A stretch of 10,296 nt of DNA from a virus (Duplodnaviria; Heunggongvirae; Uroviricota; Caudoviricetes): positions 1-10,296 of the IMG/VR virus record IMGVR_UViG_2548876863_000020. The stretch is one strand, 5' to 3'. Positions 7,022 through 9,652 of the stretch are shown here, piece after piece. The number at the start of each line of letters is the position of its first letter. The stretch's first letter is position 1. Below the pieces are notes generated by a model, which was not told where the DNA came from, made no database searches, and saw nothing but the letters and a program-made list of their open reading frames with translations. The position numbers and the translations under genes are program-made.

Positions 7022-7054
7022 AAATAAGAAAATAAAGGCCACCATCAGGCAGCC
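7022..7054 (-). terminator. Putative intrinsic terminator (minus strand) after ral-like gene
   Basis: Minus-strand RNA GGCUGCC-UGAU-GGUGGCC (7 bp including two G-U pairs) followed by UUUAUUUUCUUAUUU; the ral-like stop TGA is in the loop. Confidence 0.45.
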
Positions 7055-7245
7055 TTGTTGTTCTGTTTACCAAGTTCTCTGGCAATCATTGCCGTAGTTC
7101 GTATTGCCCATTTATCGACATATTTCCCATCCTCCATTACAGGAAGCATTTCTTCAGGCTTAACCATGCATTCCGATTGCAGCTTGCATCCATTGCATCG
7201 CTTGAATTGTCCACACCATTGATTTTTATCAATAGTCGTAGTCAT
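7045..7245 (-). CDS. ral: Ral-like restriction-alleviation protein (66 aa), cysteine-rich
   Basis: ATG 7245..7243. Sequence MTTTIDKNQWCGQFKRCNGCKLQSEC... matches my recollection of lambda Ral closely, and it lies downstream of N in the pL operon as ral does in lambda. Not verified by search. Confidence 0.5.
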   Translation of the reverse strand: MTTTIDKNQWCGQFKRCNGCKLQSECMVKPEEMLPVMEDGKYVDKWAIRTTAMIARELGKQNNKAA

Positions 7246-7323: not shown

Positions 7324-7623
7324 TCAAATAAGTGGTTTGCTGCCTAATTTCATTTTCTGGCAACCAACACAAGTCACACCCATTTCACTGCGTGGCTTGC
7401 GGTAGTAAATACGGTTCTGTTTACGCTCGACTTCTTCTTTCTTCTTGCAGCAAAGGCTTCCTAGCGATGCTGCTTTGTCTGCTCTGACGCAACCAGAGAG
7501 CTTTAGCGCAATTTTTCGCGCCAGTCGCTGCTCTTGCATCGCCTGTTCACGTTGAGCCTGTCTGCGTGCTCTGCGGCGATTTCTGGCGTTATCGTCAGCC
7601 AGATATGTAATGACTACTGTCAT
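7324..7623 (-). CDS. N: Antitermination protein N (99 aa)
   Basis: ATG 7623..7621 with GGAGG 5 nt upstream (track ORF extends further with a non-ATG start). Arginine-rich motif NARNRRRARRQAQREQ near the N-terminus; C-terminus ERKQNRIYYRKPRSEMGVTCVGCQKMKLGSKPLI parallels lambda N (ERKNQRTWYSKPGERGITCSGRQKIKGKSIPLI, recalled). Confidence 0.85.
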   Translation of the reverse strand: MTVVITYLADDNARNRRRARRQAQREQAMQEQRLARKIALKLSGCVRADKAASLGSLCCKKKEEVERKQNRIYYRKPRSEMGVTCVGCQKMKLGSKPLI

Positions 7624-7678
7624 GTTGACCTCCGATGAAACAACTTTGGAATTGATAGTGATTGCAAAGTGGTTTCTG

Positions 7679-7707
7679 GCCCCTCGAACTGAGGGGCAGA
7701 AAGAGCA
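7679..7707 (-). promoter_or_regulatory. GC-rich hairpin with boxA-like flank in the N leader (function uncertain)
   Basis: Minus-strand RNA UGCUCUUUCU then GCCCCUC-AGUUC-GAGGGGC (7-bp perfect stem), about 55 nt upstream of the N start; no U tract after it, so not a classical terminator. Confidence 0.35.
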
Positions 7708-7936
7708 TCTCGCCACCTAATAGGTCGATGCTCGGATCGAGAGATTTAATTAACCTCGGTTTTGAAGTTATGCATTCACATAAATCCTCCTACCTCTTGT
7801 GCAGCTTTCTTGAATATGGTGGCGGCTGCATAACGCCTATGGAATTGACTTTGGCGGTGACGCGCCGGGTGCTTATCTTCCGGTTGCCGTCGTGCAGCTG
7901 CACTTCACGTCACCCCAAAGCCAACTACTCTTTGGT

Positions 7937-7978
7937 TCCCGCATTTCGGCGGGACAATCCCATCAATGTTAAAGAGCA
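7937..7978 (-). promoter_or_regulatory. nutL (boxA + boxB)
   Basis: Minus-strand RNA UGCUCUUUAAC (boxA-like; consensus CGCUCUUUA) followed after 14 nt by hairpin UCCCGC-CGAAAU-GCGGGA. The same boxA plus identical boxB occurs in the same transcript orientation downstream of cro. Confidence 0.7.
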
Positions 7979-8023
7979 TGCCAATCTGTTCCGTTTGGCT
8001 ACCAGCGTCCTGCTGATGGCTAA

Positions 8024-8052
8024 AGAATACTGTAGGTATTTTATTGTGTAAA
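8024..8052 (-). promoter_or_regulatory. pL candidate (-35 TTTACA, 17-nt spacer, -10 TATTCT on minus strand)
   Basis: Read on the minus strand: TTTACA (plus 8047-8052), spacer of 17, TATTCT (plus 8024-8029). Same -10 hexamer as the pR candidate; overlaps OL1, about 40 nt upstream of nutL. Confidence 0.45.
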
Positions 8053-8197: not shown

Positions 8198-8566
8198 TTA
8201 GTCAGCGAAGGTTAAGACGAGAATTACCTTAATGATGTCTGCTACAACAGACACGGCCATAGATAAACCAAAGACGATCCAAGCCATAGAGATGTCTTCA
8301 CTACCATCGTATAGAGTTCCGTAATCACTGGTGTAAGGCGTAAATGTCGCGCCTTGATACAACAGGTATAAGCTTGAACCATAGAGGATAAATGCAGATA
8401 TCCCTTGTATTGCTATGATCACTAGAATCATGAAACGAGCTGATCTATGCGCCCAAGCCTGGCTTATTTTTTCTGATAGAGATTTCGCAATAAAAGCATG
8501 CGCTAAGCCGTAAATTGTCGAGATTGCCAACATCCCAAAAAAGCTTGCTATAGCGGTTCCAACCAT
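8198..8566 (-). CDS. Small integral membrane protein (about 122 aa, three predicted TM helices) co-transcribed downstream of cI
   Basis: ORF-track frame 8198..8587 (TTG overlapping the cI stop); ATG 8566..8564 with AAGGGG upstream is the more likely start. Three hydrophobic stretches of roughly 25 residues each. No terminator between it and cI. Confidence 0.65.
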   Translation of the reverse strand: MVGTAIASFFGMLAISTIYGLAHAFIAKSLSEKISQAWAHRSARFMILVIIAIQGISAFILYGSSLYLLYQGATFTPYTSDYGTLYDGSEDISMAWIVFGLSMAVSVVADIIKVILVLTFAD

Positions 8567-8583
8567 AAGCGCCCCTTGCGTGA

Positions 8584-9300
8584 TCAAACCAGCCTTAGTT
8601 TTGTCTCAATTGCAACGCCTATAATCTTGCAGTTTCCATTGATTGGCACGAGAGGCCATGCAGGGTTAAGTCCCTTGAGGTATTTATTTCCGCCGTCGAT
8701 TATCAGCTTCTTGAATGTTGCTTCGTTAGAGTCAGAAAGTTTTGCTATGACCAAGCTGCCGTTGATCGCCTCCCTTCCGGTATCGAAAAGAACGAATGTT
8801 CCCTCTGGAATGCTTAACCCAACCGGTGCCGTCATTGAATCACCTTCCACTTTAAGCCAGAACGCATTACCTTGAATATGCGCGTCAGACTCAAGCCAAA
8901 CATCTATGTCTTTAATGGTGTATGGTTCGCATGCTTCACACCACGAGCCAGCCTGGATACTGCTTAACACCGGATACCTCTTTCCTGCTCTGTATTCCCC
9001 TGCATACCTTACGTTGGCATCGCTCTTAAGGCTTTCTGCCTGTTCTGCAACCTTGGCAGCAATTGACTGGCTAAAATCAGCAATTGAGACTTGCAACAGT
9101 CGTGCAAAACCAGATGCAACCTCAACGTTTAGCGCGTTTCTGCCATTAAGATAATGCCCTACCGCTCCTTGGGTGATACCCAGTTCATCAGCGATTGAGT
9201 ATTGGGTTATTCCCAATTCTTTCTTTTTTGACTCATACAAAGCCTTAAGCCGCTTAGCGTCTTCGAGCTGTTCTGTCGTCAGTGATTTTTTATTTTCCAT
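8584..9300 (-). CDS. cI: CI-type prophage repressor (238 aa), HTH plus S24 autopeptidase domain
   Basis: Strong resemblance to lambda CI as recalled (LTTEQLEDAKRLKALYESKKKELG...). Ala-Gly cleavage site in IQAGSW, catalytic Ser in EGDSMTAP, Lys in TFKKLI. Divergent from cro with operators between them. Confidence 0.95.
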   Translation of the reverse strand: MENKKSLTTEQLEDAKRLKALYESKKKELGITQYSIADELGITQGAVGHYLNGRNALNVEVASGFARLLQVSIADFSQSIAAKVAEQAESLKSDANVRYAGEYRAGKRYPVLSSIQAGSWCEACEPYTIKDIDVWLESDAHIQGNAFWLKVEGDSMTAPVGLSIPEGTFVLFDTGREAINGSLVIAKLSDSNEATFKKLIIDGGNKYLKGLNPAWPLVPINGNCKIIGVAIETKLRLV

Positions 9301-9377: not shown

Positions 9378-9406
9378 TTGTTCATGGTTAATAACGGAGA
9401 GTGCAT

Positions 9407-9601
9407 ATGATTCGAATGACACTTGCCGATTACGCCAAAATCCATGGACAGGCTAAAGCAGCCAGTGACTTTGGTGTAATCCAGTGCGCTATCAGCAAGG
9501 CCATTCTGGCAGGCCGTAACATTATGGTTACGGTAAAGCCTGATGGCAGTGTGATTGGAGAGGAAGTTCGTCCTTTCCCAAGCAACAAGAAAAACAAATA
9601 G
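9407..9601 (+). CDS. cro: Cro repressor (64 aa)
   Basis: ATG 9407 with GGAGA 6 nt upstream (track ORF begins at GTG 9401). Resembles lambda Cro as recalled (ITLKDYA..FGQTK.A.DLGV.QSAINKAI.AGR...DGSV..EEV.PFPSNKK). Confidence 0.9.
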
Positions 9602-9607
9602 TAACAC

Positions 9608-9652
9608 CGCTCTTTAACAGTCATGGTCCTCATTCCCGCCGAAATGCGGGAA
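9608..9652 (+). promoter_or_regulatory. nutR (boxA + boxB)
   Basis: CGCTCTTTA at 9608-9616 (boxA consensus), then hairpin TTCCCGC-CGAAAT-GCGGGAA at 9633-9652, identical to the nutL boxB, immediately after the cro stop. Confidence 0.75.

Follow-up and report, generated by a model that had tools for sequence, protein, structure and literature searches.

An 80-nt element lying between nutL and N (7845-7924, - strand) was analysed in a window of 10,296 nt, the whole stretch of DNA under study, taken from IMG/VR record IMGVR_UViG_2548876863_000020. The element is probably an RNA element of the pL transcript (- strand) that constitutes the counterpart of the RNase III-sensitive N-leader hairpin of lambda, topped by a separate, portable junction motif. 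Confidence in the structure and the homology is high; it is moderate for RNase III processing of the helix, which is argued by analogy with lambda, and low for any specific role of the junction. The known part of the element is the lambdoid N-leader RNase III helix and the new part is an uncatalogued apical motif.

Position and fold of the element

The window comes from a lambdoid prophage with immunity of the HK620 type and covers its immunity and early-left region, in which genes lie mostly on the - strand (Table 1). Identity across the locus is 96% to HK140, 89% to CUS-3 and, with one large gap set aside, 98-99% to HK620. In the HK620 record pL, OL1-3 and nutL are annotated, and pL, nutL and N were placed in the window through the HK620 and phage 21 annotations combined with direct sequence identity. 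The pL transcript starts at ~8017 (the A of AUCAGCAGGACGC), a start sequence common to lambda, the annotated phage 21 start site and the window. An identical copy of the nutL boxB is observed at nutR downstream of cro (9634-9651, + strand), indicating that it is the cognate N site, and the N product gives a weak Pfam N_peptide match. The element occupies +94 to +173 of the pL transcript, with nutL (7937-7978) on one side and the N start codon (AUG 7623) on the other. The sequence-only reading had likewise placed it in the pL leader between nutL and N, in agreement with the HK620 and phage 21 annotations and the promoter scan, but had taken the leader to be roughly 200 nt long when its actual length is 394 nt. 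Elsewhere in the region, a 129-aa ORF between cI and pL (8198-8587, - strand) is the positional homologue of HK620 hkaS, belongs to no Pfam family and occupies the place of rexAB in lambda.

Table 1. Features of the early-left region, of the element and of the insertion downstream of it (positions in the window)
Feature	Position	Strand	Basis and remarks
Cro	9401-9601	+	Pfam and annotated relatives
CI-type repressor	8584-9300	-	Pfam and annotated relatives
pL promoter, TTTACA-17-TATTCT	8024-8052	-	Promoter scan; identical to HK620-annotated pL
nutL	7937-7978	-	boxA UGCUCUUUAACA 7967-7978; boxB hairpin UCCCGCCGAAAUGCGGGA 7937-7954; matches HK620-annotated nutL
Lower basal helix, 5' arm UUGGCUUUGG	7915-7924	-	Pairs with 7845-7854; folds, inverted repeat, conservation, pair counts; same sequence at base of lambda N-leader hairpin
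Upper basal helix (P1), 5' arm GGUGACGUG	7906-7914	-	Position of lambda GGUGUGUG; double compensatory changes in 6 of 9 P1 pairs
J1/2, AAGUGCA	7899-7905	-	Unpaired, near-invariant, AAUUGCA in most relatives; alignment, invariant columns
P2 hairpin, GCUG-CACGA-CGGC	7886-7898	-	RNAalifold, variant table, pair counts (GCU/GGC to GUC/GAC)
P3 hairpin, CCGG-AAGAUAAGCAC-CCGG	7865-7883	-	Loop holds inner G-C and U-A pairs, bulged A, tetraloop AAGC
P1, 3' arm CGCGUCACC	7856-7864	-	Folds, pair counts
Bulged G (7855) and lower helix 3' arm CCAAAGUCAA	7845-7855	-	Conservation, pair counts; bulge position conserved, A in most phages, G here
AGGAGG and AUG-UGA (strong Shine-Dalgarno, start-stop)	7776-7791	-	In insertion
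Hairpin GAGCAUC/GAUGCUC	7703-7733	-	Overlaps boxA-like UGCUCUUUC (7699-7707)
Hairpin GCCCCUC-AGUUC-GAGGGGC	7679-7697	-	7 bp, pentaloop; consensus fold
Stem GAAACCACUUUG/CAAAGUUGUUUC	7637-7676	-	Abuts N Shine-Dalgarno; consensus fold
N with ribosome-binding site GGAGG (7629-7633) and AUG (7621-7623)	7324-7633	-	Annotated N in HK620, HK140 and CUS-3
Ral	7045-7245	-	Pfam and annotated relatives

The element folds into a 19-bp basal helix with one bulged base and a three-way junction on top. The arms of the helix lie at 7845-7864 and 7904-7924, UUGGCUUUGG-GGUGACGUG (7924-7906) pairing with CGCGUCACC-G-CCAAAGUCAA (7864-7845) around the bulged G at 7855, and form a long, near-perfect dsRNA of about two turns. 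An 84-nt segment has a minimum free energy of -40.6 kcal/mol compared with a shuffle mean of -25.5 (z = -4.81), none of 200 shuffles being as stable. The same helix is recovered on folding the whole leader (418 nt folded) and also appears in the folds of phage 21 and HK620.

Parts of this fold had been detected in the sequence-only reading, which gave exact coordinates for GGTGACG (7856-7862) and its partner CGTCACC (7908-7914), for the two enclosed CCGG copies (7865-7868 and 7880-7883) and for a 12-mer palindrome, GTGCAGCTGCAC (7892-7903). These repeats are present as described; however, the extent assigned to the palindromic element, 7856-7914, was too narrow, as the helix spans 7845-7924. 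The perfect 12-bp palindrome, moreover, is not the conserved hairpin. The conserved pairing is that of P2 (GCUG/CGGC), which overlaps the palindrome and with which the latter competes by offering a 4-bp hairpin, GUGC-AGCU-GCAC; P2 is kept in relatives without the palindrome, as members with GUC...GAC still form it. A pseudoknot between GUGC of J1/2 and GCAC of the P3 loop was considered and rejected, comprising 3-4 bp and showing no covariation. An upstream CCAAAG (7930-7935, - strand) can also pair with CUUUGG of the 5' arm (7915-7920), rivalling the downstream CCAAAG, and an equivalent alternative pairing of different sequence (CCAGAAC/GUUUUGG) is observed in phage 21. The upstream pairing may represent a co-transcriptional folding intermediate.

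ORFs of spurious appearance overlie the element, namely a 129-aa + strand ORF (7662-8051), short - strand ORFs and HK140_048. None of them produces a Pfam hit or is conserved across the HK620 deletion form and, as had been noted from the sequence, no credible ORF spans the element. Database 'hypothetical proteins' drawn across the leader (HK140_048, FIG00644188; L001 1677-1802; L007 357-572) are similarly unconserved and without a Pfam hit. Several of them are probably annotation artefacts on a structured RNA.

The basal helix and its lambda counterpart

Covariation in the basal helix was assessed by scanning IMG/VR for the conserved 5' arm, which yielded >100 loci. Arms were anchored by sequence only and not by complementarity, as the 10 nt after TTGGCTTTGG and the 11 nt before CCWAAGYYAA, and the 47 distinct arm combinations obtained, together with lambda and phage 21, constitute an alignment of 49 distinct rows. 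In this alignment 95.6% of cells are paired, compared with 26-46% when the partner columns are slid, and 136 cells carry double compensatory changes; the observed values were not reached in any of 500 shuffles. Nearly all variants pair in register when one bulged base is allowed and pairing is absent without it. Wobble pairs are distributed asymmetrically, with 52 G-U against 4 A-C, indicating that selection acts on the pL-sense RNA and not on duplex DNA or terminal inverted repeats. The suggestion that the element is a structured RNA, one of several options raised in the sequence-only reading, is strongly supported by the covariation and by the strand on which the wobble asymmetry falls. The interior enclosed by the arms is clearly mosaic, ranging from ~40 to >250 nt, that of the window being among the shortest. 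In most relatives the 3' arm ends 5-8 nt before the N Shine-Dalgarno.

A helix equivalent to that of the window is observed at the same place in lambda, downstream of an identical transcript start, as GGCUUUGG-GGUGUGUG...CACACACC-A-CCAAAGCU, and in phage 21 as GUGGUUUUGG-GGAUGGCGCG...CGCGUCAUGC-G-CCAAAGCCAC, where 5 nt separate its end from the annotated N ribosome-binding site. In the window the helix base reads UUGGCUUUGGGGUG.../...CACCGCCAAAGUCAA, and in lambda GGCUUUGGGGUG.../...CACCACCAAAGCU. The lambda structure at this place is the RNase III-sensitive hairpin of the N leader and, judged by sequence, the basal helix is homologous to it, a relationship to which the sequence-only reading made no reference. 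The two leaders share the transcript start, the order pL, boxA-boxB, long helix and N, a near-identical helix base (GGCUUUGG-GGUG.../...CACC-N-CCAAAGY) and a single bulge at the same position. They differ in that the interiors are unrelated, lambda having an irregular hairpin of ~80 nt that gives no match to the junction model described below, and in that the window helix lies 206 nt further from the N ribosome-binding site. Thus, while the 3' end of the helix is found directly before the N Shine-Dalgarno in HK620, phage 21 and most relatives, this is not the case in the window, where a 206-nt insertion intervenes.

In lambda, RNase III reportedly cuts at +88/89 and +197/198, positions which, counted on the lambda sequence, fall where the lower half of the helix meets the upper. 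By homology, cuts in the window would be predicted at the corresponding boundary, near 7915/7914 and 7853/7852. The basal helix would present about two turns of dsRNA to host RNase III and could bring the nutL-bound antitermination complex and the downstream leader together, and cleavage would separate nutL from the N message and hence modulate N synthesis. It is through N synthesis from the lambda N leader that host growth state, read via RNase III levels, enters the lysis-lysogeny decision. Covariation of the helix in dozens of lambdoid phages with unrelated N proteins suggests that the N-leader control point is general.

Cleavage by RNase III, with a resulting rise in N synthesis, is known for lambda only, and the predictions are in keeping with published statements on that phage. 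The lambda N leader is named as an RNase III target in a statement of PMC5371410 that cites Steege 1987, and N mRNA is described as positively regulated by RNase III in one of PMC9032294 that cites Kameyama 1991. The stretch from NutL to the N Shine-Dalgarno is called highly structured, and of importance for N autorepression by N and Nus factors, in a statement of PMC5725501 that cites Wilson 1997 and 2002. The arrangement further resembles the rrn leader-trailer helix with boxC, the RNase III site flanking 16S rRNA, in which a long helix of RNase III type likewise begins, with its 5' strand, within ~15-20 nt after a boxA antitermination signal and in which pairing outweighs sequence (PMC10250234). 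The rrn strands, however, lie ~1.7 kb apart around 16S rRNA, whereas a 41-nt junction is enclosed here, and the rrn helix and the window helix share no sequence homology.

The three-way-junction motif and its contexts

The apical part of the element is a compact member of a covariation-supported three-way-junction motif that has no Rfam entry. Relatives were identified with two independent patterns, one constraining the P3 loop and the other only J1/2 and P2. The motif consists of a P1 of 9 bp, J1/2 of sequence AA(U/G)UGCA, a P2 of 3-4 bp with a C..GA loop, a J2/3 of AA and then P3, which joins the 3' strand of P1 directly. P3 itself contains 4-5 bp, an unpaired AA, a G-C pair, a bulged A, a U-A pair and an NAGC tetraloop. 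Across 38 distinct cores, 94.1% of cells are paired compared with 32-51% when slid, and 113 cells carry double changes. P3 is paired in 100% of cells in these cores, its stem occurring as CCGG/CCGG, UCGAG/CUCGA, GCCG/CGGC or CCAG/CUGG and its inner pair switching between U-A and C-G, and the loop consensus AAGAYNAGCRC also arose in the set that was not selected on the loop.

The resulting covariance model, R1 (P1-AAUUGCA-P2-AA-P3(AAGAYNAGCRC)-P1', with covarying helices), detects a single copy in the window (7853-7915, - strand) at 77 bits and E = 3e-19, a score to be read with the window-type sequence being in the training set. Phage epsilon34 was left out of training, and its copy, located between the annotated PL and an N-like gene, scores 78 bits. 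Scores of 69-85 bits are obtained in 68 of 100 IMG/VR loci, while the best score in the control, 0.75 Mb of unrelated bacterial DNA made up of chance matches to a loose TGCAG-N14-24-AGATAAGCAC pattern, is 14.8 bits. No R1 match is found in lambda or in HK022 24-33 kb. Rfam 15 gives no hit in the window, matches at E up to 10 being at chance level, nor does it recognise the motif in any of 28 related loci or at the P1-like locus; P1 C4 antisense RNA, YrlA and ribozyme or riboswitch families were rejected, as none of them gave an Rfam match. The motif was not found in Rfam or in the searchable literature.

The motif is present in lambda-like, P22-like and P1-like phages and is encountered in several contexts. 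In Class A, the extended CUUUGG/CCAAAG helix carries the junction, a Shine-Dalgarno and AUG lie 17-36 nt further downstream, and what follows is either a small acidic ORF or an N gene of the HK620, phage 21 or P22-like type. The motif is therefore not tied to one N specificity. In Class B, the extended helix is absent, a boxA-like sequence, AGUGCUCUUUUC, abuts P1 and an intrinsic terminator lies 30-45 nt downstream, a layout resembling that of a nut site followed by a terminator. At one such locus (L329 2330-2460) and ~30 other IMG/VR loci, the motif is followed by a conserved spacer, CCCACAUUGCUGUGUAGUCUUUGG, together with a strong intrinsic terminator. In P1-like phages, compact and expanded copies occur downstream of tRNA genes and antisense to plp. 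Phage RCS47 (P1-like; L442 2240-2575) has, past tRNA-Asn and tRNA-Thr, an unannotated tRNA-like sequence at ~2243-2318 with AGGGUUCGAAUCCCU, after which an expanded and then a compact junction copy (2513-2574) are observed on the strand opposite the annotated plp. About one third of distinct N-leader interiors carry the compact form or the expanded form, GAAUGCGCAGGCUGAUGCG...GCCGG-AGNUCAGCAC-CGGC. In some other phages (IMG/VR loci L028 691-760, L058 473-599 and L130) the interior of the N-leader helix is a tRNA-like element whose T loop is GGUUCGAUUCC; a tRNA is called by ARAGORN in the first and by Rfam in the second, and the upper helix doubles as acceptor stem. This range of interiors suggests that different RNA-processing cassettes are interchangeable inside the N-leader helix, and the exchange of three-way junctions, expanded versions and tRNA-like elements within the same helix provides a natural test of the role of the interior.

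As its invariant unpaired bases are unexplained by RNase III recognition and as it also occurs without the extended helix, after a boxA-like sequence and before a terminator, the junction probably has a function of its own beyond providing dsRNA for RNase III. The invariant junction and loop bases imply a specific fold or partner. Since several unrelated N proteins accompany the motif, and since it also occurs where N is missing, any partner is probably a host factor. Invariant unpaired bases, proximity to boxA-like sequences and terminators and absence from Rfam make the motif a candidate new cis-acting signal in phage early transcription or RNA processing. We tentatively suggest, at somewhat less than even weight, that the junction is an undescribed but widespread RNA family of temperate enterobacterial phages (lambda-, P22-, P1- and Sasha-like) having its own function in early transcripts, for example as a module that binds a host factor or RNA polymerase and works with boxA on termination or processing, and that N leaders have mounted this junction on an RNase III helix.

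Another reading, in which the junction is itself a transcription-elongation signal, appears unlikely. The junction would then be a nut- or put-like RNA to which RNA polymerase, Nus factors or another host protein binds and which suppresses terminators downstream of it, and the helix would only present it. The layout in many viral contigs, with the motif directly after boxA-like AGUGCUCUUUUC and an intrinsic terminator 30-45 nt on, is the same as that of nutR-tR1, the invariant unpaired bases are suggestive of a specific partner, and occurrence of the motif with at least three N types and without N would make any such partner a host factor. However, a canonical boxA-boxB nutL, cognate with nutR, is already present upstream in the window, and the boxA core is not strictly kept in the boxA-like flank of several members, which reads for instance AGUACUCUUUUC or GGAUACUCUCCG. 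As with nut boxB, the position of the motif in one class of contexts is directly after a boxA-like sequence. BoxB, however, is a hairpin (5-7 bp, loop of 5-6 nt) that N reads through its arginine-rich motif, whereas the three-way junction of the window measures 62 nt and is a motif that accompanies several N types and also occurs where N is missing. Comparison with HK022 put leads in the same direction. Put is also a structured RNA of ~70 nt with conserved bulges located just downstream of lambdoid early promoters (PMC9378689), but it consists of two stem-loops in a V shape without a closing helix (PMC9378689), and R1 finds nothing in the HK022 put regions, so that the element does not belong with put.

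The neighbourhood of tRNA genes and tRNA-like elements raises a further alternative, which we regard as quite improbable: the element would be a processing cassette of tRNA-like or RNase P type, or else a stable small RNA would be excised from the leader with the element as its precursor. P3 stacks on P1 without a linker, as the acceptor and T arms of tRNA do, an N-CCA follows the 3' arm (G-CCA here and A-CCA in lambda), other phages enclose a true tRNA-like element in the same helix (those called by ARAGORN and Rfam above) and the motif lies just downstream of tRNA genes in P1-like phages. Yet neither ARAGORN nor Rfam detects a tRNA in the window, the 11-nt P3 loop is not a T loop and the CCA is base-paired within the lower helix; in addition, the literature attributes processing of the lambda leader to RNase III.

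The palindrome and the insertion before N

The sequence-only reading also allowed for a protein-binding DNA site or a recombination scar. In its general form this alternative holds that the inverted repeats and the palindrome, with its PvuII site (CAGCTG), are a site for a dimeric protein or 'boundary sequences' promoting recombination between mosaic modules. The entire N-cI interval is indeed annotated as boundary sequence in CUS-3, conserved arms surround highly variable interiors, the helix has an insertion precisely at its 3' end, and window-type and phage 21-type sequences each retain a 12-mer palindrome (GTGCAGCTGCAC and TTGCAGCTGCAA, respectively). The variable halves of the arms, however, co-vary with the G-U excess given above, as expected of an RNA read from one strand and not of a DNA site or of terminal inverted repeats, and the palindrome is missing in most motif members, which have UUGCAGUCC... 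in its place. Nor did the search for further copies of the 12-mer that had been proposed reveal a repeat: the window holds a single copy, and 74 of 200 shuffles yield at least one match at 2 mismatches. The palindrome was therefore rejected as the key feature, being statistically ordinary and absent from most members of the motif; it is conservation and covariation in relatives, and not the palindrome, that place the element beyond chance. A DNA-level function is thus needless to account for the element, is disfavoured as its primary explanation and is considered very improbable. A transcription attenuator or intrinsic terminator, for which a strong GC-rich helix in a 5' leader might speak, is essentially refuted by the sequence and scarcely credible, as no U-run follows the helix on the transcribed strand, where the sequence is CACCGCCAAAGUCAAUUCC and the 3' flank GCCAAAGUCAAUUCC, and the terminator scan found none on the - strand. 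The reading of the element as an N-leader RNase III helix carrying a junction is preferred.

Alignment with HK620 defines the insertion as 206 nt (7638-7843, - strand). It begins precisely where the 3' arm of the helix ends, separates that arm from the N ribosome-binding site and is shared by the window, HK140 and CUS-3. It lies just downstream of the palindromic element, has the appearance of a mosaic junction and went unmentioned in the sequence-only reading. The arrangement without the insertion is conserved in Erwinia, Yersinia and Hafnia phages as well as HK620. The insertion is observed in 3 phage records and in 163 of 5426 E. coli genomes, in three sequence types, the nutL-helix region being present in 520, and is also joined to other helix interiors and to another N type (the L014 lineage). 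The insertion is an independent mosaic module.

Should the helix upstream of it be cleaved by RNase III in the window, the N message would keep a structured leader of ~220 nt. Because the insertion parts the helix from the N ribosome-binding site, the geometry described for N autorepression in lambda may not apply in the window and the lambda logic may be modified.

Diverged direct repeats, CCAAAGTCAAT and CCAAAGTTGTTT, border the insertion. Between the 3' arm of the helix and the N Shine-Dalgarno, where the window carries its insertion, other IMG/VR loci (L026, L102 and L117) have an inserted small hydrophobic ORF, MLDIMTNPILGGLVTTFAICFGFTIWSEVDDWMWERKNK, and this position appears to be an insertion hot spot.
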